Source of the DNA: a virus
DNA: 64,000 nucleotides
Virus record (IMG/VR): IMGVR_UViG_3300034109_001012
Reading direction: 5' to 3' (one strand)
Both the position numbers and the translations under genes were made by a program. Below are positions 1,138 through 52,305 of this stretch, piece after piece. Below the pieces are notes generated by a model that was given only the letters and a program-made list of their open reading frames with translations, did not search any database and was not told where the DNA came from. Within the stretch, counting starts at the first letter, position 1; the number at the start of each line of letters is the position of its first letter.

Positions 1138-1531
1138 ATCAGCTATCACCAAAGGGAGTACAACAGATCAACTCAATGATGCAGTTGTTAAGACCCAAAA
1201 GAAAGCTAAAGATAACGCGATCGTTAACACTAAAGCCGTTATTGTTGCGGGTCAAAACTCCGGGCGGGAAGATGCTAAACTATTTAAAAAAGCAAAACAA
1301 TTGGCTTTCTTAAATGAAATTGCAGACGATGAAATCGAGTCTGCTAAGGCTTTATTGGTTGGGATTCCTGAGTATAAGAATGCAATTGATCAAGCGTCCG
1401 GGTGTGAGTTGGAAAACCTCTTAGACTTTGATCAAGAAATCTCAATTGAGGCTTTAGAACAGCAACTTAACGAAGCGGTGGGAAAGTCAAAAAAATCCCA
1501 GTTAGCTGTGAGAAGTTTTTTCGGAGAATAG
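1025..1531 (+). CDS. hypothetical protein (acidic, helical)
   Basis: 168-aa ORF with an AAGGAG Shine-Dalgarno about 10 nt upstream of the ATG. It ends just after a T_TTT_TTC run (1516-1522). Confidence 0.5.
   Translation: MSYQESQATDNNTQPELTELYQNSRKPQTQAEQPKQPKSAITKGSTTDQLNDAVVKTQKKAKDNAIVNTKAVIVAGQNSGREDAKLFKKAKQLAFLNEIADDEIESAKALLVGIPEYKNAIDQASGCELENLLDFDQEISIEALEQQLNEAVGKSKKSQLAVRSFFGE
1516..1522 (+). promoter_or_regulatory. candidate -1 frameshift heptamer T_TTT_TTC
   Basis: In the zero frame the sequence reads agT TTT TTC. The -1 frame stays open for 37 more codons to the TGA at 1630-1632 (FFRRIEQLEARVERIEVILKIPQPKEISQQLELLMGGF). That frame has no usable start codon of its own: its only ATG/TTG lie 5-7 codons before the stop. 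Confidence 0.3.
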
Positions 1532-1632
1532 AACAATTAGAAGCGCGGGTTGAGAGAATAGAAGTTATCCTAAAAATCCCTCAACCCAAGGAAATCAGTC
1601 AACAATTAGAATTGTTAATGGGAGGATTTTGA

Positions 1633-1716
1633 ATGGGAATTATCATTGATTTAGTTAATATTTTCGGGGTCTACTGTTCCTATAATGTTATGCCGTTTTT
1701 AATGGGAGGTTTCTGA
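1633..1716 (+). CDS. 27-aa hydrophobic peptide (not in ORF track)
   Basis: MGIIIDLVNIFGVYCSYNVMPFLMGGF. It is preceded by a GGGAGG SD. The motif TTAATGGGAGGWTTYTGA recurs at its own 3' end and couples to the next ATG. Confidence 0.3.
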   Translation: MGIIIDLVNIFGVYCSYNVMPFLMGGF

Positions 1717-1841
1717 TGAATTTTATCTGTTACTTAATCGCTTTCTTTCTTGGTGTCGCAATCTTTAGCAATCAAATTGTCTACAGTAGAATCAGGGAAC
1801 AATCCCAAAATTATCGGCATGAAAATCTTAGAACCCGTTAA
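1716..1841 (+). CDS. 41-aa single-TM peptide (not in ORF track)
   Basis: MNFICYLIAFFLGVAIFSNQIVYSRIREQSQNYRHENLRTR. It has a TGATG overlap with the previous small ORF and a GGGAGG SD upstream. Confidence 0.3.
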   Translation: MNFICYLIAFFLGVAIFSNQIVYSRIREQSQNYRHENLRTR

Positions 1842-2244
1842 AGCGATCCTCTTAGGAACTATGATTGGTGGCGTTAGTTCAGTCCTTTTATCCCTAACAT
1901 TAGAACCCGAAATATCAGAACTTAGGATGGGGCAATACGGTCTGTTTATCGGATTAATAGCTAGTTCCACAGCTACCTCAATAATCACCGCTTCTAGCCC
2001 CAACAAAGACCAATCAAAACCAGATTACACACCCAACAAACCGGAGCTAAAACCAGACTTTAGCCTTGTATTGGGTGAACTAATCCAAAGGTCGGCAGAA
2101 AATCACCTTAATGCCTTGCTGCCTGGGACTCCTGAGTATTATACAGCCCTTGACCTGTACTGGAAGACGTTATCGGGCGAAAACGACACTTCAAACACCA
2201 ACACCCAAAAAACCAAAACCCTACACCGTAATGATGGAGCTTAA
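1819..2244 (+). CDS. membrane protein
   Basis: The track ORF 1750..2244 starts at TTG. The first ATG (MKILEPVKAILLGTMIGGVSSVLL...) is at 1819. There are two hydrophobic helices. Confidence 0.5.
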   Translation: MKILEPVKAILLGTMIGGVSSVLLSLTLEPEISELRMGQYGLFIGLIASSTATSIITASSPNKDQSKPDYTPNKPELKPDFSLVLGELIQRSAENHLNALLPGTPEYYTALDLYWKTLSGENDTSNTNTQKTKTLHRNDGA

Positions 2245-2249
2245 TACAG

Positions 2250-3059
2250 ATGATGGATGGATTACCACTTAGTGATGATTACACCCCCGTTGGTGTGGAA
2301 TCAGAACCCCCTCAGAGGGAACCCAGAAAGCCTAATAAAACACAGAAACGGGTTGTAATTTTTTTAATAGTAATTGCCGTCTGTGGGGCTATTAGTTTAA
2401 TCGGAAACAAAACAGGCATAACTAAGAAATTTGCTCCTAACGTCCCTGTTGCTGAAAACGTTGATATTTCAGCCATGACAGCAGCCGAACCAACGGGAGA
2501 GTCTTCAACAGAATCAGATAGTAACTCTGAAGATTTTCAGCCATCTCCTGACCTGGAAATGCTCAGAAATGACTTGCTTGATAAGTCATTAAACGAAGTC
2601 GGGTTTCAGATTAATAATTTGAGTGAGTCGGTAGCGGAAACTTTCCTGTTACAAGCCAGAAGTGCAATCGAAAAACAACCAATTTCGATTGAGTTATTTC
2701 TGATTAAGAAAATTAACTTCTTAGCCAACAAACTTGATAAAGCAACCCTAGCGGGCGAGTTTAACGGTAGCCCCAAAGAACGTAAAGCAGCCGCCGATCT
2801 GTTATTCGAGGTTTGGGGTAATTTGTTGGCATTAAAACGCCACTGGGAAACCACAGCCGCCGATCAAGTTCAGATTAAATTTACATCTGTTAATGTTGCG
2901 GTTTTAGCTTCTGATGTACGCCGATTTGCCGAGGTTTCAATGCAGTTAAGAATGCTCACTTACGAACAACAGAAAAGGACAGAAGCACTCCAAAAACAAC
3001 TTGAGTTAGAGGCTCAAAAATTGGCTGAAAAGGAGGCTAAAGATGCCAAAACCAAATAG
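2250..3059 (+). CDS. membrane-anchored coiled-coil protein
   Basis: 269 aa. One TM helix (VVIFLIVIAVCGAISLIG) and a C-terminal heptad-rich, Lys/Glu-rich tail. Confidence 0.55.
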   Translation: MMDGLPLSDDYTPVGVESEPPQREPRKPNKTQKRVVIFLIVIAVCGAISLIGNKTGITKKFAPNVPVAENVDISAMTAAEPTGESSTESDSNSEDFQPSPDLEMLRNDLLDKSLNEVGFQINNLSESVAETFLLQARSAIEKQPISIELFLIKKINFLANKLDKATLAGEFNGSPKERKAAADLLFEVWGNLLALKRHWETTAADQVQIKFTSVNVAVLASDVRRFAEVSMQLRMLTYEQQKRTEALQKQLELEAQKLAEKEAKDAKTK

Positions 3060-4470
3060 TTTTACTAAAGATAATTGGGGGGTTGCCATTGCTGCAACGT
3101 TGGGATTATCAGCAATTGGTTTATTTAGTGCCGCGTCAACTCAAATAGAAGATTTGAAAGGAATATCCCCATTTCAAAATAAAAGCGGTGAGTGGGGTCA
3201 CACCCTCGTTATCGAACAAAAACCCCTCAGCAATTCCGGTCTATTATTCCTGGTCGGTCTAGGTTGTCTCGGTGGTGTTGCTGGTTTGGTGTTAGGGGAT
3301 GAACCTTTATTAAGAATTGAAGACTTACCTCGGACAATCCCAGATACCCTATCCAAAACAATCGCCTGGACAGTTTTTGGGATTGGTCAAAGTTTGGACA
3401 CTCTAGGGGACTATGGCGAGAAAGGATACGCAAAATCAAGTCAGCTAATAATCCGAGCTATACCACCGGAAATCAAGTCGAAGTTTCAATCAATTAAGAA
3501 TGATTCCGGTTGGGTGTCAGAGTTTCTATCGTTGCCACACCAAAGACTCACCGGCGGGACGGGTTCGGGTAAGTCTAAGTTACTGGGATTGATTATTAGT
3601 CAATGGCTAGAAAACAATCCAGACGGTCAACTTTTTATAGCTGACCCGAACTACGGGAAACCCGATAATGACGGCTACCTTAATAATTGGTTCGGATTAG
3701 ATAACCAATGGATAAAACAACCCGACGATGAAATCGACGCATTGATTGATTACGTTCATAGCCAATTAGATGAACGGATTAAATGTTGCGTAGAGGGGGC
3801 TAAGAATGGGGCTACAAAGCTCTCTGACCTTCAAATTGACCTAACACCTATTTGTCTAATTTGTGAGGAGTTCGACAGCATAATCGAACGTTACAAAAAG
3901 GATAAAAATGATTCTCGATTAGATAAATTAATCGAGATTATTAAACAAGGGAGAGGCTACAAAATTAAGTTAATTCCCGTCGGTCAAAGCGCATCGGTAG
4001 GGGAGGGCGGTTTTACTTTGGCTACCCTTGAGAATATCGCCCAATTAATTATCTGTTATCCCGCAATTCCAGAAACCCAGTTGAGATATTTGGGCGGTGC
4101 TAAAGATGAATTAATCTTGATAGCTGAAAGGTTATTAAAAGATGGGAAACGTCCTGCTATTTGCACCATAAAAGGGCAGTCAAGAGTTGTCACCATTCCC
4201 GACCTATCTGGGTTTAACGTTAGTTTTGCTAACACTAATTCAACAAATCCCGACGATGATTGGTGGCAACAAATTAACACAGAATCCTTTAAATTAGCTT
4301 TGGAAGTAAGAGCATTAAAGTATTCTCAAAGCTTAATTCCATCACCGCTAAAACAGATTTGTTCTGAGTTGGGAATAGAGCCACGTTCAACAAATAAACG
4401 ATATACCCAATACCTAAAACCCGCTTGGGAAAATCAGTTAGCTCAAGCCAAAACCCCTGTGAATAAATAG
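3043..4470 (+). CDS. membrane-anchored FtsK/SpoIIIE/TraB-like DNA translocase ATPase
   Basis: 475 aa with N-terminal hydrophobic helices. Walker A is LTGGTGSGKSKLLG and the Walker B-like motif is ICLICEEFDS. GRGYKIKLIPVGQSAS resembles the FtsK motor motif. The C-terminal PLKQICSELGIEPRSTNKRY is HTH-like. Confidence 0.7.
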   Translation: MPKPNSFTKDNWGVAIAATLGLSAIGLFSAASTQIEDLKGISPFQNKSGEWGHTLVIEQKPLSNSGLLFLVGLGCLGGVAGLVLGDEPLLRIEDLPRTIPDTLSKTIAWTVFGIGQSLDTLGDYGEKGYAKSSQLIIRAIPPEIKSKFQSIKNDSGWVSEFLSLPHQRLTGGTGSGKSKLLGLIISQWLENNPDGQLFIADPNYGKPDNDGYLNNWFGLDNQWIKQPDDEIDALIDYVHSQLDERIKCCVEGAKNGATKLSDLQIDLTPICLICEEFDSIIERYKKDKNDSRLDKLIEIIKQGRGYKIKLIPVGQSASVGEGGFTLATLENIAQLIICYPAIPETQLRYLGGAKDELILIAERLLKDGKRPAICTIKGQSRVVTIPDLSGFNVSFANTNSTNPDDDWWQQINTESFKLALEVRALKYSQSLIPSPLKQICSELGIEPRSTNKRYTQYLKPAWENQLAQAKTPVNK

Positions 4471-4481
4471 GAGTATCTGTT

Positions 4482-4865
4482 GTGAATAAAAGGTTGAAAC
4501 TATTGACTATTGGATTGATTACCGCGACTTCGTTACTGTCTATTCCGATATTTTCCGTGGCAGAATCAGCCTTTGAAGGTTCAGGAAATTATCTAGTATC
4601 AGTTGGCAACACACCCAAAAGACAGTTAATTATCAATCCCTTTGATTCAAGACAATTAGTTACCATTTCTTCGGATATCAAGTTTTCTTTACTTCGCATA
4701 AATCGTAATGCAATGGCAAGTAATTCCCCTTCTTCTACAAGAAAATTCGTTTTTCTTGACAGAAAAGAGTCATTAATCATAGTATTCGAGCCGTCTAAAG
4801 TCAACAAAAAAACCAGGGTAACGGTTCGTTTTGAACAAGCTGACATCACCCAAATTAACAAATAG
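4482..4865 (+). CDS. secreted protein (signal peptide)
   Basis: 127 aa with a GTG start. N-terminal KRLKLLTIGLITATSLLSIPIFSVAES looks like a signal peptide. Confidence 0.5.
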   Translation: MNKRLKLLTIGLITATSLLSIPIFSVAESAFEGSGNYLVSVGNTPKRQLIINPFDSRQLVTISSDIKFSLLRINRNAMASNSPSSTRKFVFLDRKESLIIVFEPSKVNKKTRVTVRFEQADITQINK

Positions 4866-4872
4866 GACAACC

Positions 4873-5112
4873 ATGAAACCATCAAGAATTGCTTTGATCT
4901 CTGCCCTAACACTACTTATCTTTTTTGGAATCCGAGGAATGACGGTAGAAACCGCTATCAAGACGGGATTTGAAAAAACTATAGGAACTTTATCCTATTG
5001 GTTTGGTGGCAGCATTAACGCCGACAGCAATCAAAGATCCTTGCCTAAAAACCAGGGTGATGATTCTGAGACAATTACCCCAATTGAATCCTTGGAGGAC
5101 GTTAGAGAATGA
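4873..5112 (+). CDS. small membrane/secreted protein
   Basis: The first ATG after the upstream stop gives MKPSRIALISALTLLIFFGIRG... The track ORF began at 4831 inside the previous gene. Confidence 0.45.
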   Translation: MKPSRIALISALTLLIFFGIRGMTVETAIKTGFEKTIGTLSYWFGGSINADSNQRSLPKNQGDDSETITPIESLEDVRE

Positions 5113-5471
5113 GAGTTATTTTTAATGCTGGAGGATTGTTGGGATGGGTTTTTCTGATTTATTTCATATGGAATCAGGCTATCCCTTGGTGGTTCAAGAA
5201 AGGGTTTGCTGAAATCGTTAAGGTTGTTCCCGATATAGTTAAAACTATTCCGACTGAAGATTGGGCTAAACCCAAAGAAGAACCTAAACCAGAAGACAAA
5301 AAGCCCGGTGAAAGTAAAGAGAATAAACCAGGGGAGTCTAAGGAAGAAACCTCTAAAAAACTATTCTCAGGCGAATTTAAACTGGGTGGCTTGCGGTCAA
5401 AATATAACCTTGACATCCCACAAAATAAAGAGTCAGAAGCAGCGGGGAAACAGGACATGGGAGTCAAGTAG
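5109..5471 (+). CDS. membrane protein with Lys/Glu/Pro-rich tail
   Basis: 120 aa. TM helix LLGWVFLIYFIW, then a KPEDKKPGESKENKPGESKEE repeat. ATGA overlap with the previous gene. Confidence 0.5.
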   Translation: MRVIFNAGGLLGWVFLIYFIWNQAIPWWFKKGFAEIVKVVPDIVKTIPTEDWAKPKEEPKPEDKKPGESKENKPGESKEETSKKLFSGEFKLGGLRSKYNLDIPQNKESEAAGKQDMGVK

Positions 5472-5473
5472 CA

Positions 5474-6070
5474 ATGTTTAATCAGAAACTGGAGGAGAGG
5501 ATAAAGGATTTTGAGGAACAGTTGGATGACGCTTCTTTCTGGCTTTTCGTTGTTGCTTTGCTCTTGGGCTTTACAGTTTTTAAATTCGGAATACCCTCTC
5601 CCCAGGTTCCTCAATCCTCAACAGCAACATCATCAGAAACAGTCACGCTAGGAAAGGACGCGCCCAAATTTATCTATCCCCACTCAACCCCATACCTAAT
5701 ATCTTCTGGGTTTGGCATGAGAGAACATCCTGTAACGGGAGGACAAAAAATGCACAACGGGATTGATTTTTCAGCGCCAGGGGGTGCAAATATTCTGGCT
5801 GTTGCCGATGGACAAGTCTCGTTTGCGGGGGATATGGGGGGATGCGGTAACGCGGTTGAACTTAATCATTCCGGGGGCTACCTGTCCAAATATTGCCACG
5901 CCTCAAAAGTTTTAGTTCAGAAGGGTCAATCAGTCAAAGCGGGCACTCCTATTGCACTGGTTGGTACAACGGGAACATCGACCGGAAATCACCTGCACTT
6001 GGGCATAAAACTCAACGGAAAATACATCGACCCTAAAAAAGTTATCCCTATAATGGAGCCAAAAAAATGA
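5474..6070 (+). CDS. M23/LytM family peptidoglycan endopeptidase, TM-anchored
   Basis: HNGIDF (HxxxD) and GNHLHLG (HxH) are M23 zinc-ligand signatures. There is an N-terminal TM helix. Confidence 0.8.
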   Translation: MFNQKLEERIKDFEEQLDDASFWLFVVALLLGFTVFKFGIPSPQVPQSSTATSSETVTLGKDAPKFIYPHSTPYLISSGFGMREHPVTGGQKMHNGIDFSAPGGANILAVADGQVSFAGDMGGCGNAVELNHSGGYLSKYCHASKVLVQKGQSVKAGTPIALVGTTGTSTGNHLHLGIKLNGKYIDPKKVIPIMEPKK

Positions 6071-6678
6071 TTTTCAATAATTTGATGATGTCAGCAGTAA
6101 CCGGATTTGCCTTGATCGGATTATTGCAATCACCCGCTATTCAATCGGTAGCTGGTACAACTCAAGTATCAGGTGATATCTCCAAAGCAGAAGCCCCAGA
6201 AGATATCAAGAAAGCAGTTAGTGAAGCAGGGATAAGTGATCCTAGTTTTGCTTGGGCGATAAGTCACATTTTGAAGGTAGAAGGAGGTTGGTCAAATCAC
6301 CCTGCCGATGGTGGAGGAAAAACAAAATTCGGCATTATTGAAAGTGTAGCTAAACGCCACGGGATAAACGTTTCGACCATCACACTACCCCAAGCAATCA
6401 AAATATATTATCAAGATTATTGGTTGCAGTCGGGCGCAGATAAAGCGCAGAAACCGTTAAATTTAGCCATTATGAACTCCTATGTTAATTCTGGCAAAAA
6501 GTGGGGAATCTCAGGGGCTACACCATTAGAACAAGCTAAAAATTACATCCAGAAACAGGATGATTACTACACTTCGATTTACACCTCCCGACCTTCTCAG
6601 ACTGTATTCAAAACTGGGTGGCATCGCAGGACTAAATACATGATGGATGCTGTTAATGGTGGTAATCCTAGTTGGTAA
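6067..6678 (+). CDS. GH108-type lysozyme-like peptidoglycan hydrolase
   Basis: Signal-like N-terminus. VEGGWSNHPADGGGKTKFGI matches the GH108 N-terminal motif (EGGxxxxxxDxGGxTxxGI). ATGA overlap with the M23 gene. Confidence 0.7.
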   Translation: MIFNNLMMSAVTGFALIGLLQSPAIQSVAGTTQVSGDISKAEAPEDIKKAVSEAGISDPSFAWAISHILKVEGGWSNHPADGGGKTKFGIIESVAKRHGINVSTITLPQAIKIYYQDYWLQSGADKAQKPLNLAIMNSYVNSGKKWGISGATPLEQAKNYIQKQDDYYTSIYTSRPSQTVFKTGWHRRTKYMMDAVNGGNPSW

Positions 6679-18256: not shown

Positions 18257-18320
18257 GCTATAATAACCTCACTTGTTGCTTAACTACGTCCTCTAGCCTT
18301 CTGGGTTAGAGGGCATCTTA

Positions 18321-18329
18321 ATTATAGCA
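18321..18329 (-). promoter_or_regulatory. extended -10 promoter TGcTATAAT
   Basis: The reverse complement reads TGCTATAAT. A hairpin (CCTCTAACC...GGCTAGAGG) follows in the 5' UTR. Confidence 0.45.
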
Positions 18330-18375
18330 GTCCATCTACTTAGGTCTATCTCTAAAAAAATATTTTAGAAAACCC

Positions 18376-18404
18376 TTGACATATAGCCGTCTATCTACTA
18401 TAGT
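18376..18404 (+). promoter_or_regulatory. near-consensus promoter P2
   Basis: TTGACA-17 nt-TATAGT. Identical to P3 over CCCTTGACATATAGCCGTCTATCTA. Confidence 0.7.
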
Positions 18405-18435
18405 TATAAATAGTTAAGCAATAAGGAAAAACGCC

Positions 18436-18690
18436 ATGAACACCACTAAAATCGTCCATCAAGTAGTAATCACCCTCCGAGACACATACAGACACGCTCG
18501 GTTTATTGTGACCACAGAAGGCTCGGACATTATCATCTCATGGACTGACGGCCCTACAGAGGAATCGGTGATGGGGTTTGTGTCATACCTGAGCAAAAAT
18601 ATCAAGCCCAACCGAACCTATACAGAGCAACAGGAAGAAGCTGACATTTGGGAAAGCGTAGTAAATAACTACGCAAAAGCACACCGCTAA
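18436..18690 (+). CDS. small early protein, paralog family member a
   Basis: MNTTKIVHQV...IIISWTDGPTEESV. It shares the N-terminus and the (V/I)(T/S)W(T/S)xG core with the next two ORFs. Confidence 0.55.
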   Translation: MNTTKIVHQVVITLRDTYRHARFIVTTEGSDIIISWTDGPTEESVMGFVSYLSKNIKPNRTYTEQQEEADIWESVVNNYAKAHR

Positions 18691-18706
18691 AAATGAAAAT
18701 GCGCTA

Positions 18707-18743
18707 AACCCCTTGCCAGTCACGGTTAAGGGGTTTTCTTTTT
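18707..18743 (+). terminator. intrinsic terminator
   Basis: AACCCCTT-13 nt-AAGGGGTT followed by TTCTTTTT. Confidence 0.65.
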
Positions 18744-18781
18744 AGCTCGGATCTACCTTAAAAAGAATTTTAAAAAAACCC

Positions 18782-18810
18782 TTGACATATAGCCGTCTAT
18801 CTATTATGAT
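18782..18810 (+). promoter_or_regulatory. near-consensus promoter P3
   Basis: TTGACA-17 nt-TATGAT. Confidence 0.7.
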
Positions 18811-18842
18811 TAAGATAGTTAAGAAATAAGGGAACAAACACC

Positions 18843-19025
18843 ATGAACGCCAAATCAATCGCTAAAGAAGTTAAGTTTATCTTAGTCAATACCTACACTA
18901 AATCAGTATTTAAAGTCACATCTACAGGGTATTGTGTTGTAGTAACCTGGACGGGTGGCCCTACAGTTTACGAAGTCGGTCAAAGTGTTTTACACCTGGG
19001 TGATGTCAAACTCCACAGAGCATAA
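18843..19025 (+). CDS. small early protein, paralog family member b
   Basis: MNAKSIAKEV...VVVTWTGGPTVYEV. Confidence 0.55.
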   Translation: MNAKSIAKEVKFILVNTYTKSVFKVTSTGYCVVVTWTGGPTVYEVGQSVLHLGDVKLHRA

Positions 19026-19068
19026 GAATCAATACTTAACCACTTGAATCCCACAAAGGACAAACACA

Positions 19069-19284
19069 ATGAATACCACTAAAATCGTCCGCGACCTCAA
19101 AATTTCACTCAATAGCTTGCCCAACACAACTTTCACGATCCAATCAAACAGCAATAATGAAATTGATGTAACTTGGTCTAAGGGGGTATCAGAAGTGTTC
19201 GTAGAAGAATACCTCGCCTCCATAGGATACCCCGCATATCTAGCCAGCACGGGAATAGTTATTAAAATGATACGAAAGAATTAA
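19069..19284 (+). CDS. small early protein, paralog family member c
   Basis: MNTTKIVRDL...IDVTWSKGVSEVFV. Confidence 0.55.
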   Translation: MNTTKIVRDLKISLNSLPNTTFTIQSNSNNEIDVTWSKGVSEVFVEEYLASIGYPAYLASTGIVIKMIRKN

Positions 19285-19296
19285 GACTCATTACTA

Positions 19297-19333
19297 TCAA
19301 AAAGCCTAGGATTCAACCCCTAGGCTTTTTGAT
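19297..19333. terminator. bidirectional intrinsic terminator
   Basis: ATCAAAAA-GCCTAGG-ATTCAACC-CCTAGGC-TTTTTGAT. The loop nearly matches that of the 17053 terminator. Confidence 0.75.
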
Positions 19334-19335
19334 AA

Positions 19336-20910
19336 TTAATCCGGCATCCGCCCAATTAATTTAGGTTCAATTCCTGTTAGTTTCTCGAATCTTTGTAAGA
19401 TGATTTCAGAATACTTCTCGCTGAGTTCAAATCCTGCGACGGTGCGATCGCCTTCTAACTTTTCCCCTGCAATAATATCCGTGCCACTACCAAGGAAAGG
19501 GGAATAAATTACCCCGTCATCAGGTGAGCTACTTTTATAAATTCTGGCAATCATATCAACGGGCTTGGGTGTTGCGTGACCCCATCTCTCCTCACCTTGA
19601 ACTCTGGGATATTCCCATACATCGGTCATGTTTTCATGGGTGTTGTTGAAGTAAGCCCGTGTCTCGTACCATTCCCGTTTAAGGTCATCGTATTCCCGTT
19701 TAAGGTCATCGTATTCCCGTTTAAATGCTTTGCCTTTTGCTGCGTTTTGCAGAGCAATATAATCCTCCTCTAAAATAAGTCTGAACCCTCCTTTTGTAAA
19801 AGCAGATTGAGTCATGTTCTGTTTGCCACAAATCTTGTTACATTGTGCCGTTGTTAACCCTGATTTCTTGCGCTCATTGTCAAGGTATAGCCTGATTGTC
19901 TCCCATCCTTCCCAATAATTATCGGCATTATTATTAAATCCTTGTTCACCTAACATAAAGAAAAGCACAACTTCATAGCCGTGCGGGTAGCTTCTCATTT
20001 TGTCGCTACCAATCGGACTTCCACACGGACCTGCAGATGGTGGTTTATTCCAAATAACTTGACTTCTGAAAGTCAATCTTTCCGAATCTTTCAACCCGCC
20101 CGAATACCACAACCGCCATAAATCCTCAACATTTCCCCAAATATAGGCACTGGCATTATCAGCAACAGAACCCCGGCAAGCCCTCCACCATTTCATCTGA
20201 AAGTCATCTAGCTTATCTCGGTAGAGGTTATCATTCAGAACCCCGTCCTTTTCTTTACCCATGCCATAGGGCGGATCGGCGTGAATTAATGAAGCTATGC
20301 GATCGCCTAACAAAGCCCTAACATTCTTCTCAATAGTAGAATCACCTACAGCTAATTTGTGCCGCCCTAACTGCCAAATTTCACCCAACTTAACACGGCT
20401 TTCAATCTCATCTACCTTATCCAGAAGTTCGGCAATTTCTTCCTCGTTTTCTTCCCTCTGTTCAGCAACGCCAAAACTTTCACCTTTACCCAATGACTCT
20501 AATAATTCATTTAATTTATCATCAGGGAAAAACTCAGAATAATCTACCTCTTGAGCCAACTCCTCCAATATTTCATAATCCCATGTACTAAAATCAGATG
20601 CCGTATTATCAGCGATCGCATACTTTTTCCATTGTTCCTCAGTCAATCCTCTCCTTTTGACTGCAACAATAGTATTACCATCTACCTCAATGGTGACAAC
20701 CTTCTCAATCCCTAATTGACCCGCCTCCTCAAAGGTTCCATTACCCGCCCGAATCACGTCATTTTCATCGACAACAATACTTCGAGCTGCCCCAAACTGT
20801 TCTAACGATTTCCTAATAACGCTTGCTGATAAGGGCGTTCTTTTGCGGGCATTGTTAGGATCGGGAGTCAATTTGCTGATATCTGTCTCAGTAATTTTAG
20901 GTTTAGTCAT
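19336..20910 (-). CDS. ParB-like nuclease domain fused to N4/N6 DNA methyltransferase
   Basis: N-terminal LTPDPNNARKR...IVVDENDVIRAGNG is ParB/Srx-like. IHADPPYGMG is motif IV and SPFLGSGT is motif I. Confidence 0.75.
   Translation of the reverse strand: MTKPKITETDISKLTPDPNNARKRTPLSASVIRKSLEQFGAARSIVVDENDVIRAGNGTFEEAGQLGIEKVVTIEVDGNTIVAVKRRGLTEEQWKKYAIADNTASDFSTWDYEILEELAQEVDYSEFFPDDKLNELLESLGKGESFGVAEQREENEEEIAELLDKVDEIESRVKLGEIWQLGRHKLAVGDSTIEKNVRALLGDRIASLIHADPPYGMGKEKDGVLNDNLYRDKLDDFQMKWWRACRGSVADNASAYIWGNVEDLWRLWYSGGLKDSERLTFRSQVIWNKPPSAGPCGSPIGSDKMRSYPHGYEVVLFFMLGEQGFNNNADNYWEGWETIRLYLDNERKKSGLTTAQCNKICGKQNMTQSAFTKGGFRLILEEDYIALQNAAKGKAFKREYDDLKREYDDLKREWYETRAYFNNTHENMTDVWEYPRVQGEERWGHATPKPVDMIARIYKSSSPDDGVIYSPFLGSGTDIIAGEKLEGDRTVAGFELSEKYSEIILQRFEKLTGIEPKLIGRMPD
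19671..19724. repeat. 21-bp tandem repeat x2.6 inside the ParB-MTase gene
   Basis: ATTCCCGTTTAAGGTCATCGT is repeated. It encodes KREYDDL-KREYDDL-KREW. Confidence 0.85.
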
Positions 20911-21085
20911 AACTCAATAGTAGATAGGTTTCTAACCTATGTTATCTTGATAATACTGTTTAGCGACATTTACCGACATAAAAAAATTCAATATAGCTAA
21001 AATTGAAAAAGCTGTTGAGATTTTTCTTGATAACCCCTGGCTAAATGTTGTTGATTTAGCCGGAAAAGTTGGTGTATCTGAGAGG

Positions 21086-21481
21086 GTGATTAGATACTGG
21101 AAAAAACACCCCATCTGGGAAGAAACCAAGACTAGAATAATATATAAACGTGCGGAGGTTTTAGGGGCAATGTCTGAACAAGAAAAGATCGAACTTAGAG
21201 AAAAACTTTTAGAGCGACAACGTGAAATAGATATTTTTAGAAATGCTCTTAAAGAGAATACTGCACAGTGTTTCAAGGTTACAAACCAAGCCTATCGGGA
21301 TCTTACCAAAGACAATGATGCAGTTAAGGCTTGTGCTAAAGCTACAAAATCAGGTATTCATGTCCAATCTAAAAATGCAATGGATGGACTAAAAACAATC
21401 ATGCTGATAGATGAACACAGTTATCAACTCAGTATTATTATTGAAAACTTCGATGACTCCGGCGAAGATGACGAGGATTAA
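21086..21481 (+). CDS. terminase small subunit-like protein (start uncertain)
   Basis: It lies directly upstream of TerL. The frame is open from 20954 and encodes an HTH-like segment (NVVDLAGKVGVSERVIRYWKKH) that straddles the GTG at 21086. No ATG, GTG or TTG lies upstream in frame. Confidence 0.45.
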   Translation: MIRYWKKHPIWEETKTRIIYKRAEVLGAMSEQEKIELREKLLERQREIDIFRNALKENTAQCFKVTNQAYRDLTKDNDAVKACAKATKSGIHVQSKNAMDGLKTIMLIDEHSYQLSIIIENFDDSGEDDED

Positions 21482-23201: not shown

Positions 23202-26200
23202 ATGTTTGACTCTGTTTTTTCTCCAAATCCTTCTGCAATATTCCGAGCCAAAACCCCCGACTACGTTAAACCCAAGTCGATAAAAATTAATCTGGATAGA
23301 TTAGAGAATGGCGGGGCTAATACTTTAACTGATGCTTTTAGTCGTGTGGTCTCCAAAGCATTAAAAGACTTAGACGGAGCAATTAAAACTAAAGACTCAA
23401 AGGCAATTGAAAACTATCAAGCTGTCTTAATTCCTGAGTTGACCAAATCAATTTACGGGATGTGGCTTGGGGGTTGGAACATCGGGCGGAAACATGGGGA
23501 TAATGAAATTAAGTCCCAACAGAAAAAGGGAACAAACACAGCCAACTTTGACGAGGATCTGCTAGACGCAGAATTAGCGTCTATAGAAAATGTCCCCGCT
23601 CAAAACGCTATTGCCAACCGTTCCAAGACTCTGGCTTCTGATATTTCCTCGACTCAATGGGGGAAAATTAGAGGGCATATCCTATCAGCAATTCAACCCC
23701 AATCCGAAACAGGGGAACCGATAAGCAGATCCGAACTTCTCAAGCGGATCAATTCGGAGTTAGGTGATAGAGGGTTTAAAAATCGCGCCGAGAAAATAGC
23801 CAGAACGGAGTTAACTTTTGCCTATAACGCAGGGAGATTACAGACTTATAAAGATTCTGGTTTAGTTTCCCATGTTGTATTCTTGTCAATCCTAGATGAT
23901 CGCCGTTGTCAGGTCTGTGAAGGTCGTCACGGGATGATGATTGACCTAAACGATATAGAGACTGTTTCAGCGAATACACCGCCGATGCACGTCAATTGTC
24001 GCTGTGTATTGAGTCCGAGACTGGCAACTCCTGACAATCAACAGGAGCTAGACGATCAAACCCAAGATTCCAAAAAACGTCGATTATTTGAAGCTCCTCC
24101 TAAATGGTTGGCTGCGGGTATCTTAGCGGCGATTCTATTGTCACAGAAAAAGGTACGGGTTCCGGGGTCGGGTGTTGCCACCCCAGGAATTTCAATTCCT
24201 TCTCCAGTCAGGGAAGCTGTTGAACGGGGTTTGGTTGATGTTGCTTTAGCTGCACAGATTCAGAAGATAGCCAAGGCAACGGGTGAAGTCCAGACAGCAG
24301 AACAGATCCGTCAACGACGCAAAAATCAAACCGAATCATTGCCGGATCAAGGTGTGATTGAAATTCAACCTAGATTAGTTTTGAATGGGGTTGAGCTAAA
24401 TAGTGCCACACCTGAACAAATTAGAGAGGGGTTAAAAGAGTTTTTACCCAAAAAACAATTAGATGATTTAATCAATTATTTACAAGAAAACAAAATTAGT
24501 TCTATTGATGATTTGTTAGAGGTTAAAGGTATATCTCGGAAAAGTAAAGCATTTAAAATATTGCAGGGTTTAGCTGATAAAGATAAACTCAGGATTGAAT
24601 TAGAAAAGCTAACCAGTCCCTCGGAATTGTGGTTAAAAAATTTAGGGTTTTCCCGCTCGGAATCCAAAGCAATTTTTGATGAATTAAAAAATAAACCTTC
24701 TGAGTCATGGAGTGATCTTAAACGCCGACTTAAAAAGCGTGGTATTTCCGGTGACCGGATACAGAGAGCTATAGACAAACTCAAATCAATCGAGGCACAA
24801 GAGAAACGTCAAGTTGTGGGATTAGATAATTCCGTCCCAATGGTTCCTGATGTGACCCTAGATTCTCCAGAGATTGCAGTTGGTAAACTGATTAAACAGA
24901 GAGAGATCGGATTACAACGACGACGTGAAGCATTGCAAGAAATTAAGGATCTAGGAATTGAATTAGCTAAAATTAGATCCGATGAGAAAAGATTTAACGT
25001 CCGTCTCCGTCGCATGAACAAACGGAATCCCAAGGAGTTCGTTTCACCCGAAGAAATTAGAATTAAAGAAATTAGATACGCTAGGGTTCAGGCAAAAATA
25101 GAACAAGCTCAAAAGAAAGCCAACGCCATCGGATTCCAACTTGAAAGAGCTAATTTGGCGCTTAATCAGTTAGATATCCCCAACCTCACCCCCGCTGCCA
25201 AACTACGGAACCAAGCCGTCCAAAACTTAGGAGACGAGGGTTCTACTCTGCTCGACGCTACCAATAGCTTAAAGGCTCAAATATCTAACGAGATAGACAG
25301 CCAAATGTCTAAAGGTTTTATCCCTCCTAACAAGAAAATAGCGGGGTTAGAACAAGCAAATAACCGGGCTAAGTTAATCACAGAACCCGTGTCTAATCTG
25401 ATTGAAAAAACAAATTTAGAAGATTTACGATCTAAATTAACCGCACTCCAATCCCACTACCAAAACCTATTAGATCCTCTCTACCCAGAAAACTTTTTCG
25501 GTCGTGATATTCAGAATGACTTAACCTCACTTCGTGCCGAATTAAAAAGAGTTAAGACCGAGATTGATGATGCTGTTAGCCTACTGAAAAGAACCGATCA
25601 AACCCTCACAGCTACAACTAATCAAACTGAGTCAATCTTAGGAAAAATGGGTTATCTAAAAACCGGAGCGCAACTAGAAAAGCAAGCCAAAGAACTTGAA
25701 TCACAGATATTGAATTGGGAGAATAGAGTTAAGAAAACTAGAAACTATGAGCAAACTTATGAGCCATTTAGTCAAATAGAGAGACAGCAACCACTAGATA
25801 AATTAATTCAAGATGCTACGGACATTAAAACTCAAGTCCCTAAGTTCAAAAAGGAGCTAGAGAGTAGATTTAGACCCGGATTAAATAATGCTAAATCAAC
25901 TATTTCCGATATTGCTATACAGACTAAAAAACTCGAACAATTACAGAAAGAAATTGACGGCATCCTAACTGATACCTCCAAACTTCCTATAACCAAAGCC
26001 CAAATTCCTAGTTCGGATGTGGGAACGTATAACGCGACAGTAGAGCTTAGAAAAATATCCCGTGAAATTACAGAGGAAGTTAAACGGTTAAAGGCGTTAG
26101 CTGGTGCGAGCCGAGTTAACCTTGATGAATCTTTAAAGTCACAAAATAAAACCTATCAGCAATACGAAAAACAACGGTTTGGGGACGAGCAAACCCCATC

Positions 26201-27635
26201 CTGGGAGAAAAATCTATCCCCAATGGTTGAGTCAAGAATCACTCAAGTTGAGGATGCTGTTAAGAAGTTGGAAGCTATAGGTCAGGATTGGAATATAGGC
26301 TTCTTGGTTGATCTCGGTCAGAAGATTGACGATGGTGTTGATGCCACGGGAAAAGCTCTCAAGGTTAGGCGGTGGCTTGATGCTAACGGGCTTTCACCTG
26401 AAGATTTAACCTTATCACCAGGTACAGGCAGAAAGGTTGGTTATGAAGCCATTAGACAGTTGGCTGACGAAACCCTCAGACAGTACAACATTGTCCAGTC
26501 CAATATTAGATCCATTAAAAAAGATACCCAGTTTAAAGTATTTACCGAGAATGGATTAATTGAGGAAGACAAGTTTTTAAAATGGGCAGAAGATCAAGCT
26601 GCATACTGGCAAAACCAAGTTAAAACATCAACATCCGATAATTGGCAGGGGTCAAGTTACGAGCGAGTTGATAAGCTCTGGAAATCTTTGGATGGCAAAA
26701 AAGCCTCTGATGTTAAGGTCAGGGAATCTATCAAGCCCGATGATGTACAAGGTCAACTCAGAAAAACCATAGGTAAATATCAGGATTGGCAGCGTAAATA
26801 CACGGTATTAAAGGAACAGGGGGAAGTAACGGGGAATGGAATTAGATCATTAAATGATGCTCAAAAGAAATTATTAAATGAGCAAAATATTCTATTAGAA
26901 CAGCTTAATAGATATAACCTTGATAGCTCAAATCTAATTAGAGATAACGCAGATAACACCATGCAAATATGGGAGAAGGTCAGACAAGATGCTGGTAAAC
27001 CCGTATTCTTTGACGTGAAAGGGAAAGCCATTGAGAGGGGGGAACTATTTAAACAATTAGATGAGATTGAGAATAAATTAAAACAATCTCTAAACATGAG
27101 AGAAATCAAGATAGAACCATTAACTTATCAAGCCGATAAAGCATCGTTAATGATTAAAGATCGGAACATCCTTAATCAAGCCTTGACTGAATTAGAGCCT
27201 AAGATAACTGAAATTCAACAACAGATTCAACAGCTTGCTACGGCTGGGAAAGGAACTAAAAAACTAGAAACTCAACTGAATAAGTTGCAGCTAGAGAAAC
27301 AAATTAAACAACAGCAGTTGGGCGAGGTTATTCAAGATATTAGAGACTTGAGATTACCGCCATTACAGAATGAGAAAATCCAAATCCTCAAGGGTCAAAT
27401 AGGAGAAACCCAGAAACAATTGACGGGAATTAAATCCGAAATAGCAACACTGCGACGGGAGATAACGGCACTCAAGGAACAGCCATTGGACGGGTCAGCA
27501 TCGGGTATTAAACGTCAAAACAGACTCAATGCTTTGGAGGGTAGTATCACGCGGAAAAATCAAGATTTGTTTAAGGTTGTTGGGGTATTGAATGATCAAA
27601 GGGGAGAATTAGGGAGGTTGAGAGCAGGGAGTTAA
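23202..27635 (+). CDS. giant MuF/SPP1-gp7-domain head morphogenesis protein with coiled-coil extension
   Basis: RAEKIARTELTFAYNAGRL...DDRRCQVCEGRHG...PPMHVNCRCVL is the gp7/MuF signature. It is followed by a hydrophobic segment (WLAAGILAAILL), HhH-like motifs and more than 1000 aa of heptad-rich sequence. Confidence 0.7.
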   Translation: MFDSVFSPNPSAIFRAKTPDYVKPKSIKINLDRLENGGANTLTDAFSRVVSKALKDLDGAIKTKDSKAIENYQAVLIPELTKSIYGMWLGGWNIGRKHGDNEIKSQQKKGTNTANFDEDLLDAELASIENVPAQNAIANRSKTLASDISSTQWGKIRGHILSAIQPQSETGEPISRSELLKRINSELGDRGFKNRAEKIARTELTFAYNAGRLQTYKDSGLVSHVVFLSILDDRRCQVCEGRHGMMIDLNDIETVSANTPPMHVNCRCVLSPRLATPDNQQELDDQTQDSKKRRLFEAPPKWLAAGILAAILLSQKKVRVPGSGVATPGISIPSPVREAVERGLVDVALAAQIQKIAKATGEVQTAEQIRQRRKNQTESLPDQGVIEIQPRLVLNGVELNSATPEQIREGLKEFLPKKQLDDLINYLQENKISSIDDLLEVKGISRKSKAFKILQGLADKDKLRIELEKLTSPSELWLKNLGFSRSESKAIFDELKNKPSESWSDLKRRLKKRGISGDRIQRAIDKLKSIEAQEKRQVVGLDNSVPMVPDVTLDSPEIAVGKLIKQREIGLQRRREALQEIKDLGIELAKIRSDEKRFNVRLRRMNKRNPKEFVSPEEIRIKEIRYARVQAKIEQAQKKANAIGFQLERANLALNQLDIPNLTPAAKLRNQAVQNLGDEGSTLLDATNSLKAQISNEIDSQMSKGFIPPNKKIAGLEQANNRAKLITEPVSNLIEKTNLEDLRSKLTALQSHYQNLLDPLYPENFFGRDIQNDLTSLRAELKRVKTEIDDAVSLLKRTDQTLTATTNQTESILGKMGYLKTGAQLEKQAKELESQILNWENRVKKTRNYEQTYEPFSQIERQQPLDKLIQDATDIKTQVPKFKKELESRFRPGLNNAKSTISDIAIQTKKLEQLQKEIDGILTDTSKLPITKAQIPSSDVGTYNATVELRKISREITEEVKRLKALAGASRVNLDESLKSQNKTYQQYEKQRFGDEQTPSWEKNLSPMVESRITQVEDAVKKLEAIGQDWNIGFLVDLGQKIDDGVDATGKALKVRRWLDANGLSPEDLTLSPGTGRKVGYEAIRQLADETLRQYNIVQSNIRSIKKDTQFKVFTENGLIEEDKFLKWAEDQAAYWQNQVKTSTSDNWQGSSYERVDKLWKSLDGKKASDVKVRESIKPDDVQGQLRKTIGKYQDWQRKYTVLKEQGEVTGNGIRSLNDAQKKLLNEQNILLEQLNRYNLDSSNLIRDNADNTMQIWEKVRQDAGKPVFFDVKGKAIERGELFKQLDEIENKLKQSLNMREIKIEPLTYQADKASLMIKDRNILNQALTELEPKITEIQQQIQQLATAGKGTKKLETQLNKLQLEKQIKQQQLGEVIQDIRDLRLPPLQNEKIQILKGQIGETQKQLTGIKSEIATLRREITALKEQPLDGSASGIKRQNRLNALEGSITRKNQDLFKVVGVLNDQRGELGRLRAGS

Positions 27636-50642: not shown

Positions 50643-50927
50643 ATGGGTCAATTACAATACTATTCTGTTAACTCAAATTCTAGTAAAAAGTATCCCAATT
50701 CAGGATATTTAGACAGCATCGGATTAAGGTTAAAGAAACTAAGGGAAGATAGGAATATGACTCAGCTTGAACTGGGGGAGTTACTTAACTACAGGCAACA
50801 TTCTATAAGCAGAAAAGAATCCGGTGTATCACAAATATCAAGTATTGAGGTGGTCAATATTTCCAGGGTTTTAAGTTTAACCACGTCTGAATTAATTTAT
50901 TTATTATTGGGGGTCGATAATGGTTGA
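50643..50927 (+). CDS. XRE-family HTH protein
   Basis: LKKLREDRNMTQLELGELLNYRQHSISRKESGVSQIS is a canonical Cro/C1-type HTH. Its stop overlaps the portal ATG (ATGGTTGA). Confidence 0.7.
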   Translation: MGQLQYYSVNSNSSKKYPNSGYLDSIGLRLKKLREDRNMTQLELGELLNYRQHSISRKESGVSQISSIEVVNISRVLSLTTSELIYLLLGVDNG

Positions 50928-52305
50928 AAAATTAAGTTACCTTCCGGGTCAAATATCACCCAGTCTTGATAATTTAATCTGGGATTTTGTCTCTAGTTTG
51001 GACACTAGGGGAAAATACCCAATTAAAGATTTAGCTGCAATGCTCAAAGCTGATCCAATATCGGGCGCGGCTTTGACTGTTAAGGCATCAAGAGCAATCG
51101 CGTTAACCGGAATGTTTAAGCATGGCAATAATGAGGTTGCTAGTTTTCCCTCTGGCAAATTTACTCCAGTTGAATTTATTAATTCCTGTTGGGAGTTGAT
51201 GGATGGATCGCTGTCTGATGTGATCCTTCAGATGTCTAAACAAGCTTATGGCTTGGGTCGGAGCGTTGCTGAGATTGTGTTTAGTACGGAGATGGAGGGA
51301 CACAAGGGAGAATTAAGGATTAAACGATTCAATATTTTAGAGCCTAGTCGGATTAAGTTTGCAGGGAAATCCGGTCAGATAGATCGGATAATTTATTCGT
51401 CAAGCAAGGGGGAGGTCGGGATTCCTTATTCTAAATGTTTGCACATCTCAAATACCCCAATTGACAGCAACGATCCAAACGGCGACCCACAATCCGCGGC
51501 AGCCTATCCTTTTTGGGAATTTCATAAGTTGTTGATGCGGGAATGGTCTGTAGCTTGTCAACGGCAAGCGACAGGATTGACCATCGTACAGGTTCCGTCA
51601 ACTGAACCGATCCCTATGATGGACGCGAACGGCAAGCCCATTCTTGATGAATATGGACAAACCAAAAACACATCGGCATTAGCTCAGGCTTTAGATCAAT
51701 TAAAAGATTTAGCCAACGGGTCGATTGTTGGAACTGACAAAAACAACACCATCACCACGATTCCACAAACCGGAGGAGAAGGGTTTTTTAATTTAACTTC
51801 TGAGAAATTAGATAAATATAGGTGGTTGGCTTATGGAATCCCCTATACAATCTTTAATGAAGGCACTGCTACACTCGGACAGGCTGGCTTGAACTCAGGG
51901 CATAGATTGATTTTAGATGGCTTAATTGAGGAAATAGCTAGGCAGTTTAGGGATAGATTAATTAATAATGTTTGTCGCCCTTTATTGATGTGGAATTTTG
52001 GAATACAAGATAATTATGGAACATTTGAATCAGAACAATTCTTAGATCCCGCACAGTCGGGAATGCGAGTTTCTAATATTATGACCTGTATTCAAACTGG
52101 ATTATTTAATCCCACTGATTTAGAGGCGTTAAATCAACTCAGGAAAGATTTAGGATTAAGTCAAAGAAGACAGGAGGATTTCAACCAAGAATTAATCGAA
52201 AAAATTATGGCAGCAGAACAGCAAAAACAAGCGCAAGCACAAGCTGAATCGGCAACAGCGGAAAAAACAGAGGAGAAAACAGAGGAGGATAACCCGTATT
52301 TATAA
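50920..52305 (+). CDS. portal protein candidate
   Basis: 461 aa with an acidic C-terminal tail. It is the only portal-sized ORF next to the head operon. No motif confirmed. Confidence 0.5.
   Translation: MVEKLSYLPGQISPSLDNLIWDFVSSLDTRGKYPIKDLAAMLKADPISGAALTVKASRAIALTGMFKHGNNEVASFPSGKFTPVEFINSCWELMDGSLSDVILQMSKQAYGLGRSVAEIVFSTEMEGHKGELRIKRFNILEPSRIKFAGKSGQIDRIIYSSSKGEVGIPYSKCLHISNTPIDSNDPNGDPQSAAAYPFWEFHKLLMREWSVACQRQATGLTIVQVPSTEPIPMMDANGKPILDEYGQTKNTSALAQALDQLKDLANGSIVGTDKNNTITTIPQTGGEGFFNLTSEKLDKYRWLAYGIPYTIFNEGTATLGQAGLNSGHRLILDGLIEEIARQFRDRLINNVCRPLLMWNFGIQDNYGTFESEQFLDPAQSGMRVSNIMTCIQTGLFNPTDLEALNQLRKDLGLSQRRQEDFNQELIEKIMAAEQQKQAQAQAESATAEKTEEKTEEDNPYL

Follow-up and report, generated by a model that had tools for sequence, protein, structure and literature searches.

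We have analysed a 64,000-nucleotide (nt) stretch of viral DNA (IMG/VR record IMGVR_UViG_3300034109_001012; the whole of this stretch is referred to as the window) and find that positions 1633–6678 constitute one conserved functional module of cyanobacterial mobile elements, in which an FtsK-type ATPase (gene C) is preceded by small membrane proteins (genes A and B) and followed by further ones (D, E1 and E2) and by cell wall hydrolases that are exported by Sec and tethered to the membrane (F and G; Table 1). We favour, with a probability of roughly 0.4, the interpretation that this module is a VirB4-less TraB/TcpA-like conduit for DNA through membrane and peptidoglycan, the hydrolase end of which is also the phage lysis cassette; we infer transfer because the motor is invariably coupled to membrane partners and a wall hydrolase, and because this arrangement is retained on plasmids, for which host lysis would serve no purpose. 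Neither the genes nor the FtsK label nor the lysis pair is new, the Planktothrix phage PaV-LD (NC_016564) carrying the annotations ‘FtsK/SpoIIIE protein’ (ORF127L, 2012), ‘peptidase M23’ (ORF123L) and ‘endolysin’ (ORF122L, RefSeq). We found no published description of a cyanobacteria-specific ATPase family closest in fold to conjugative coupling proteins, or of this ATPase and the ‘lysis’ genes as one conserved module that is common to bona fide plasmids.

Conservation of the module in phages and plasmids

The closest counterpart of the module is ORF122L–ORF129L of PaV-LD, with 92% DNA identity over the full length of 1633–6678, the same gene order, and protein identities of 78% (A), 91% (B), 93% (ATPase), 98% (D), 100% (E1), 94% (E2), 91% (F) and 98% (G). 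It is among the best-conserved segments between the window and PaV-LD, and all of its genes, A–C included, are under purifying selection in the PaV-LD clade, with ratios of non-synonymous to synonymous substitution (dN/dS) of 0.08–0.5 overall, 0.14 for the ATPase and 0.08–0.27 for B.

Beyond this clade, pairwise BLAST and iterative hidden Markov models applied to all of the loci that we fetched placed families A, B, C and F in 31–39 loci, invariably in that order. The counts are 31 for A, without exception two genes before the ATPase, 37 for B, immediately before it, and 33 for F, at one constant position. In more than ten lineages, the succession A-B-C-(D,E)-hydrolase persists down to 26–35% ATPase identity. 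In the distant loci it consists of a two-transmembrane (TM) A protein, a TM/helical B protein of 250–390 amino acids (aa) whose gene overlaps the start of the ATPase, the ATPase itself, D/E-type small proteins with a hydrophobic or TM segment at the N-terminus (one or two per locus, and three in the lineage L024–L026) and a membrane-anchored hydrolase. The position of the hydrolase is constant and its type is variable: M23 alone (several loci, including phage-like contigs of 100–117 kb), M23 plus SLT (a Kastovskya contig), an F-like protein with no recorded M23 domain followed by SLT, an unassigned 285-aa protein followed by LprI and GH108, or an M23–GH108 fusion within one protein of 375–391 aa (Oscillatoria and Laspinema replicons). 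A synteny comparison with related cyanophages and plasmids, as proposed in a first-pass annotation made from the sequence of the window, therefore establishes the whole string as a conserved unit which is also found on true plasmids.

Plasmid copies are found in Oscillatoria acuminata PCC 6304. On both of its circular plasmids (50.7 and 64.1 kb, complete) the module follows ParM/StbA directly, with the gene for a D5/DUF5906 replication protein nearby, and on neither of them are virion genes or a VirB4 annotated. On pOSCIL6304.01 no relaxase, VirB4 or VirB6-like gene is annotated; pOSCIL6304.02 has a MOBP relaxase approximately 30 kb from the module (approximately 17 kb the other way round the circle). 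Toxin–antitoxin and Abi genes are abundant around the module on plasmids. Other copies adjoin ParA/KfrA or DUF3854-type Rep genes, one lies between ParM and baseplate genes in an Elainellaceae contig, one lies in a 218-kb Kastovskya contig, and further copies lie amid nucleotide-metabolism and helicase genes in the 100–117 kb phage-like contigs. The named hosts (Planktothrix, Oscillatoria/Laspinema, Elainellaceae and Kastovskya) are all filamentous.

When every ORF (open reading frame) of the window was compared by tblastn with the non-PaV-LD loci, only B, C, F and G gave matches. Because only these module genes match between the window and the other elements, the module moves as a cassette between otherwise unrelated elements, and the idea of a wider backbone common to phage and plasmids was rejected. 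We found no VirB4, VirB6-like protein or relaxase within 10 kb of the examined module copies, nor among the ten largest ORFs of the window. None of these proteins belongs to the unit in the copies examined, and the module is accordingly not a type IV secretion system, in agreement with the earlier statement that a complete one is lacking.

Two further features of these elements were recorded. In the Kastovskya adunca contig (L044), a Mu-like transposase gene (18280–21431; HTH_Tnp_Mu_1, rve and Mu-transpos_C domains) lies approximately 4 kb downstream of the module and is adjoined by a repressor-like helix–turn–helix (HTH) gene; the module apparently lies outside this Mu-like element. In addition, small Cas_csx3-domain genes are present on two module-bearing elements (L047, 13602–13949; L050, 1976–2275) and may be anti-CRISPR or signalling-related cargo.

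An FtsK-type ATPase with its closest structural relatives among DNA translocases

The gene C product begins with TM1, a β-hairpin loop and TM2 and continues with a long helix and a disordered linker, which are followed by the RecA-like core and by a conserved C-terminal domain of four helices. A hydropathy scan placed the TM segments at residues 13–31 and 62–84. The motifs quoted in the first-pass annotation, namely Walker A (GGTGSGKS, residues 171–178), a Walker B-like CEEFD (274–278) and the FtsK-like GRGYKIKLIPVGQSAS (303–318), are all present and their core residues are near-invariant: Gly176, Lys177 and Glu276 are invariant in 60 family sequences and Gln315 is kept in at least 90%. A quick homologue search with the ATPase returned only relatives of at least 73% identity, and an exhaustive profile search gave approximately 140 cluster representatives, 63 of them below 1e-10. 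Family members have 400–510 aa and one architecture, with two N-terminal hydrophobic segments and, in order, the motifs PHxR-xG-TGSGKT (Walker A), CDxNYGKP, DExDS (Walker B), GRGYxxK...GQSLAVGE and the tail SPLK...RYxxYxKPxWE. By these sequence comparisons, the window ATPase founds a family confined to cyanobacteria.

Domain databases alone did not place this protein. Its sole Pfam match was to DUF87/HerA (0.0033, 18 bits against a cutoff of 23.2), and there was no match to PF01580 (FtsK_SpoIIIE) at E≤0.1. The 60 family members, compared one by one with Pfam, gave weak and mixed matches to AAA_22 (15/60), DUF87 (10/60) and FtsK_SpoIIIE (8/60, the best at 2.3e-5). The Pfam comparison that had been suggested for 3043–4470 thus fell short of the FtsK_SpoIIIE threshold, and it took the family profile together with a structure model to assign the protein. 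With phmmer, the single sequence found no match in the PDB; the family profile matched the PDB sequences of EssC/EccC (1.2e-11 to 1.2e-10), HerA (2e-9), the FtsK motor (3e-8) and TcpA (1.4e-4). AlphaFold modelling of the monomer gave a predicted local distance difference test (pLDDT) value of 46 with a shallow alignment of relatives at ≥73% identity, and of 88 with the 60-sequence family alignment. Foldseek comparison of the latter model with the PDB ranked TcpA first (2.8e-6, approximately 250 aligned columns), followed by the DNA-bound FtsK motor (6.9e-6), EccC (1.9e-5) and then HerA.

The protein has the features that define the FtsK–HerA superfamily (a RecA-like core, Walker A and B motifs and a GR..G...Q sensor or arginine motif), and also those of the Gram-positive coupling proteins of the TcpA, ConQ and Orf21 type (two N-terminal TM segments and an FtsK-like NTPase domain). 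The model points to a membrane-anchored ATPase of the FtsK branch that is translocase-like and has DNA translocases as its nearest solved relatives; the earlier call of a TM-anchored FtsK/TraB-like ATPase is upheld in this form, TcpA and the FtsK motor being the closest structures. Viral matches to the model were generic FtsK–HerA ATPases, including A32-type packaging enzymes. A packaging role, suggested by such A32/PRD1-type matches, was rejected, as PaV-LD encodes a large terminase, a portal is present in each of the two phages, and the module is carried by plasmids without virion genes.

Membrane partners of the ATPase

Gene A encodes one strong and one weaker hydrophobic segment, and its homologues have two TM segments; its start is most likely the ATG at 1819, as judged from relatives (the alternative is at 1750). 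In the B protein, a disordered N-terminus and one TM segment are joined by a proline-rich linker to a helical domain, and the tail is a charged coiled coil; it had no Pfam match, and the B-family profile had no significant match in the PDB. Gene D is the variable component, being missing in the close relatives L007, L008, L014 and L017, and it has positional equivalents of 144–159 aa with an N-terminal TM segment in other elements. E1 was recognized by sequence in the PaV-LD clade only, and E2 has positional equivalents with similar N-termini (M..ILALIGL..) on plasmids and other elements. Outside the PaV-LD clade, the D and E equivalents were identified by position and architecture, not by sequence. 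Searches of Pfam, NCBIfam, PHROGs and PADLOC returned nothing usable for A, B, D, E1 or E2.

Hydrolases and the phage lysis cassette

Gene F encodes a Peptidase_M23 protein (Pfam, 2.5e-32; MepM/ShyA-like in NCBIfam) with intact HxxxD (HNGID) and HxH (HLH) motifs, and gene G encodes a Glyco_hydro_108 protein (Pfam, 6.3e-19; PHROG 315 endolysin, 3.7e-46) whose N-terminus is a weakly hydrophobic signal or signal-arrest-release-like segment; both proteins fall into endolysin families in PHROGs. These matches and the N-terminal segments bear out the description of a TM-anchored M23 endopeptidase followed by a GH108 lysozyme-like protein.

The PaV-LD orthologues of F and E2, i.e. ORF123 (endopeptidase) and ORF124 (called a holin), have been expressed in Escherichia coli and Synechocystis (Meng et al. 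2022, PMC9096620), where each caused growth arrest, membrane damage and enzyme leakage, the two acted synergistically and their TM segments were needed. That study handled the two proteins in isolation, unconnected to the ATPase or to plasmids. E2 and F of the window are 94% and 91% identical to the proteins tested, and ORF122L and ORF123L are the sole lysis-type genes annotated in the PaV-LD genome. Given these published tests and the lack of any other annotated lysis-type gene in PaV-LD, the 3′ third of the gene string is very likely the lysis cassette of the phage. E2, F and G together have the composition of a holin–endolysin cassette, the domains being seen here and the function coming from the tests on the 91–94% identical PaV-LD proteins; no spanin was identified. 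‘Simply a lysis cassette’ had been offered earlier as a fallback, a rating that does not hold for E2 and F, since their orthologues have already been tested as holin and endopeptidase.

We also noted that the last 51–55 bp of the GH108 gene (window 6616–6670, encoding ..HRRTKYMMDAVNGGNP) match nine Planktothrix agardhii plasmids at 89–90% in unannotated intergenic DNA, which looks like a relic 3′ end of a GH108 gene. On plasmid p3, this match lies upstream of a gene for a 1207-aa hypothetical protein, which is followed by a site-specific integrase gene.

Search for loading sites and repeats

Over-represented 8-mers had been proposed as a means of finding loading sites for the motor. The sole enriched 8-mer in the window is the palindromic cyanobacterial HIP1 sequence, GCGATCGC, with 22 copies in 64 kb (approximately 56-fold above an order-3 Markov expectation), and no KOPS- or clt-like motif emerged. 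HIP1 is enriched in every related locus. Among these, a homologue from an ‘Actinomycetota’ assembly (L049; GCA_050262755.1, JBLNEP010000218.1) was discarded as a non-cyanobacterial member, the module-bearing contig having 19 HIP1 sites in 8.2 kb and 50% GC and being almost certainly mis-binned cyanobacterial mobile-element DNA.

A different motif, (A)ACCCGTCA(C), is clustered inside D5/DUF5906-type Rep genes of two Oscillatoria plasmids (L027, 3541–3805; L028, 3551–3814) and of an unrelated metagenomic plasmid-like contig (L046, 17980–18204), so that iteron-like repeats are common to different replicons.

Comparison with known transfer and secretion systems

TcpA of the Clostridium perfringens plasmid pCW3 (PDB 6o1w/6o1x), the best structural match of the ATPase model, resembles it in having one FtsK-like NTPase domain behind two TM segments at the N-terminus, which is the arrangement of conjugative translocases of the TcpA/TraB type, but the two proteins are only 14–16% identical. 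The tcp locus likewise encodes small membrane proteins and dedicated peptidoglycan hydrolases alongside TcpA. The Tcp system also needs the VirB4-like TcpF, the VirB6-like TcpH and a relaxase, whereas the present module and pOSCIL6304.01 have no VirB4-like ATPase, VirB6-like protein or relaxase, and the host here is a diderm cyanobacterium. It is the VirB4, VirB6-like and relaxase components, too, that separate the module from type IV secretion systems in general.

The TraB/Spd system of Streptomyces consists of a membrane-bound FtsK-like plasmid motor with a short helical C-terminal domain and several small membrane proteins, and operates without VirB4 or a relaxase in multicellular, filamentous hosts. 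Similarly, the module is plasmid-borne, has small TM proteins on both sides of the motor, has a short helical domain at the C-terminus of the motor, and occurs on a plasmid (pOSCIL6304.01) with no annotated relaxase or VirB4. It differs from TraB/Spd in that no clt-like array of 8-bp repeats was found at the module and in that the cyanobacterial unit always includes dedicated hydrolases of the M23, GH108 or SLT type.

FtsK/SpoIIIE and EssC/EccC share with the window ATPase the RecA-like core, the Walker A and B motifs and a GR..G(I/V)H/K...Q motif. However, the window protein has a single ATPase domain of approximately 250 residues and not the three of EssC/EccC, and EssC additionally carries FHA domains. 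FtsK has four TM segments, as opposed to two here, and no γ domain was detected in the window ATPase.

A DNA conduit and its alternatives

In the mechanism that we favour, the ATPase would assemble, like TraB and TcpA, into a hexamer that acts as pore or motor of the cytoplasmic membrane, and its translationally coupled partners A and B would be its membrane and periplasmic scaffold. The tethered hydrolases would open the peptidoglycan locally, and double-stranded DNA of the element would be pumped out of the cell, in a VirB4-less and relaxase-independent transfer like that of Streptomyces TraB/Spd. Since every named host is filamentous, the likely route would cross the septal wall and lead to the adjacent cell. 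The cells of a cyanobacterial filament share one continuous outer membrane, so passage into a neighbour would need to cross only the membrane and the septal wall, which would explain both why an outer-membrane component is missing and why the hosts are filamentous. For the phage, E2, F and G at the hydrolase end would serve lysis additionally, or would do so after unrestrained expression.

Several observations weigh against this interpretation. No outer-membrane component is recognizable in the module, so transfer between separate diderm cells would be unexplained. Neither an 8-mer with clustering or strand bias nor a clt-like repeat turned up in the module or its surroundings. The four C-terminal helices of the ATPase (residues 403–470) are modelled with pLDDT above 90, but the profile of this domain found no significant match in the PDB that would bear out a DNA-binding fold, be it the HTH-like segment of the first-pass annotation or a γ-like winged HTH (wHTH). 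In the database searches made with A, B, D and E, no homology to Spd, VirB6, VirB8 or Tcp proteins came up, and the top sequence-profile matches of the ATPase are type VII secretion ATPases, which move protein and not DNA. The holin/endolysin behaviour of the E2 and M23 orthologues when expressed heterologously makes a purely lytic role in the phage a live alternative. The conjugation/Spd-like interpretation of the first-pass annotation is partly supported: the FtsK-type motor, the residence on plasmids and the lack of VirB4 and relaxase agree with it, and no loading-site 8-mer, clt-like repeat or γ-like wHTH was found. DNA transfer, and the cell-to-cell spread, superinfection exclusion and phage–plasmid lifestyle that it also raised, are inferences.

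A first alternative is that the whole module serves lysis or release. E2 as holin, M23 and GH108 would then destroy the wall as an ordinary phage lysis cassette does; the ATPase and the membrane proteins encoded upstream of it would regulate or energize this step, for instance in its timing or in setting free the tethered hydrolases; and the plasmid copies would be phage remnants or would serve lysis-mediated release of DNA. The synergistic, TM-dependent damage by ORF123 and ORF124 in E. coli and Synechocystis (PMC9096620), the strong PHROG endolysin-family matches, the lack of any further annotated lysis gene in PaV-LD and the presence of the module in several phage-like contigs of approximately 100 kb all speak for such a system. 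Toxicity, however, would also be expected of dedicated hydrolases of a transport machine when these are over-expressed and membrane-anchored. A complete module with intact ATPase motifs is present on two plasmids of one strain that have partition and replication genes and no virion genes, and the module sits among replication, partition and regulatory genes and not beside late structural genes. We know of no lysis system with an FtsK-type ATPase. An entirely lytic or releasing module is, on balance, doubtful.

Two other roles are considerably less probable. An exporter of element-encoded proteins across membrane and wall, either type VII-like or resembling the holin/hydrolase ‘type 10’ systems, would accord with EssC/EccC being the best sequence-profile matches in the PDB and with EccC also being matched in fold, and pairs of a holin and an endopeptidase are known from non-lytic secretion (PMC4259817). 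We consider it improbable, given that there is one ATPase domain here as against three in tandem in EccC (three matched stretches in 4nh0), that DNA translocases are the best fold matches, and that the conserved partners are all membrane proteins or hydrolases, with no WXG100-like or other substrate gene conserved among them, although no search was aimed at WXG100. Similarly slight are the prospects of a maintenance or conflict function, be it septal DNA clearance together with ParM, or superinfection exclusion and abortive-infection killing through the tethered hydrolases. The place of the module immediately after ParM/StbA on the Oscillatoria plasmids and after ParM on the Elainellaceae contig, the toxin–antitoxin and Abi genes of the plasmid surroundings, and weak PADLOC matches of the ATPase to mad8 (1.7e-7) and HerA are in keeping with a function of this kind. 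Yet the PADLOC matches are limited to the generic P-loop core, ParM is missing beside most copies (the window included) in a variable neighbourhood, and septal clearance needs no peptidoglycan hydrolase, whereas a hydrolase is always present.

Returning to the conduit, a minimal FtsK-type motor with a few membrane proteins is an accepted design for conjugation (PMC13492992). In a survey of cyanobacterial plasmids, 88% have no known transfer genes and by the current model seem immobile, and transfer by a mechanism as yet unknown has been suggested (PMC8600333); in field data, PaV-LD-like genomes are mostly cell-associated and show low transcription (PMC10343443). Both datasets fit transfer, and neither proves it. 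The module, found on plasmids that lack recognizable transfer genes, is a concrete candidate for the suspected conjugation mechanism, and it might explain the cell-associated PaV-LD-like genomes of low transcription; its presence in bloom-associated Planktothrix phages ties phage to plasmid biology and makes the ‘holin/endopeptidase’ pair published for PaV-LD the terminal part of a larger machine. A more far-reaching proposal, which we regard as unlikely, is that PaV-LD-type cyanophages, other large cyanophage-like elements and plasmids of filamentous cyanobacteria have in common an unrecognized VirB4- and relaxase-independent apparatus, in which a membrane motor of the FtsK/TcpA type works with bitopic proteins and with tethered hydrolases (M23, GH108 or SLT) to pump double-stranded DNA of the element across the septal peptidoglycan and into the next cell. 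If true, this would be a cyanobacterial counterpart of Streptomyces TraB/Spd spreading, would allow virion-free spread of a phage along the filament, and would explain the movement of ‘non-mobilizable’ cyanobacterial plasmids. Even as nothing more than a lysis system, the module would be the first case of a lysis cassette to which an FtsK-type ATPase is coupled.

Layout of the gene string and its setting in the window

The module comprises ten consecutive plus-strand ORFs with minimal spacing (Table 1). The first-pass annotation had described a tightly coupled plus-strand string with ATGA and TGATG overlaps, and the ORF coordinates and junctions agree: a TGATG overlap at 1714–1718 couples the two mini-ORFs, B and the ATPase gene overlap by 17 nt (3043–3059), ATGA overlaps lie at 5109–5112 (E1/E2) and 6067–6070 (F/G), and the remaining intergenic gaps are 2–11 nt. 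A Kyte–Doolittle hydropathy scan placed one N-terminal hydrophobic segment each in the 41-aa peptide, B, D, E1, E2, F and G. Promoter and terminator scans of the region performed no better than on shuffled sequence.

Table 1 Features of the module in the window
Feature	Position	Strand	Remark
Mini-ORF, 27 aa, hydrophobic, MGIIIDLVNIFGVYCSYNVMPFLMGGF	1633..1716	+	Below Kyte–Doolittle TM threshold
Mini-ORF, 41 aa, one N-terminal TM segment	1716..1841	+	Start overlaps preceding stop (TGATG)
Gene A, small membrane protein, 141 aa	1819..2244	+	Orthologue of PaV-LD ORF129L
Gene B, bitopic protein	2250..3059	+	Orthologue of ORF128L
Gene C, membrane-anchored FtsK/TcpA-like P-loop ATPase (predicted)	3043..4470	+	Orthologue of ORF127L
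Gene D, 127 aa, exported or anchored, N-terminal hydrophobic segment	4482..4865	+	Orthologue of ORF126L
Gene E1, 79 aa, one N-terminal TM segment	4873..5112 (alternative start 4831)	+	Orthologue of ORF125L
Gene E2, 120 aa, N-terminal TM segment and charged disordered tail	5109..5471	+	Orthologue of PaV-LD ORF124
Gene F, signal-anchored M23 (LytM-type) peptidoglycan endopeptidase	5474..6070	+	Pfam; orthologue of PaV-LD ORF123
Gene G, GH108 muramidase-like	6067..6678	+	Pfam; orthologue of ORF122L (‘endolysin’ in RefSeq)

Two or three tiny TM peptides had been proposed at the start of the string. Two mini-ORFs stand, both being conserved in PaV-LD and in L008 (a relative locus whose ATPase is approximately 80% identical to that of the window), and the third, at 1516–1632, does not, as it has no start codon; as TM peptides, only the 41-aa one passes. 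PaV-LD has an identical but unannotated copy of the 27-aa mini-ORF, which in L008 is kept with substitutions, and the 41-aa mini-ORF has a counterpart of 42–44 aa in both.

Away from the left arm, similarity to PaV-LD falls off, nucleotide coverage being 20% for 6.7–31 kb and 3% for 31–56 kb, and the window has a Mu-type portal gene at 50920–52305 (PF06074) and, at 23202–27635, a gene for a 1477-aa protein with a Mu F domain. On the basis of this 3–20% DNA match and of the Mu-type portal and head genes, the phage of the window is best described as a mosaic relative and not a strain of PaV-LD.

Immediately upstream of the module, the ORF at 1025–1531 ends in ..AGT TTT TTC GGA GAA TAG. The −1 frame entered at T_TTT_TTC is open to 1632 and ends in ..LLMGGF*, and the tail of the mini-ORF that follows reads ..FLMGGF*. 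A 21-nt unit, TT(G/T)TTAATGGGAGG(A/T)TT(T/C)TGA, is present twice, at 1612 and 1696. This arrangement at 1510–1716 could be a programmed frameshift, or a mere duplication of a ribosome-binding and stop–start junction.

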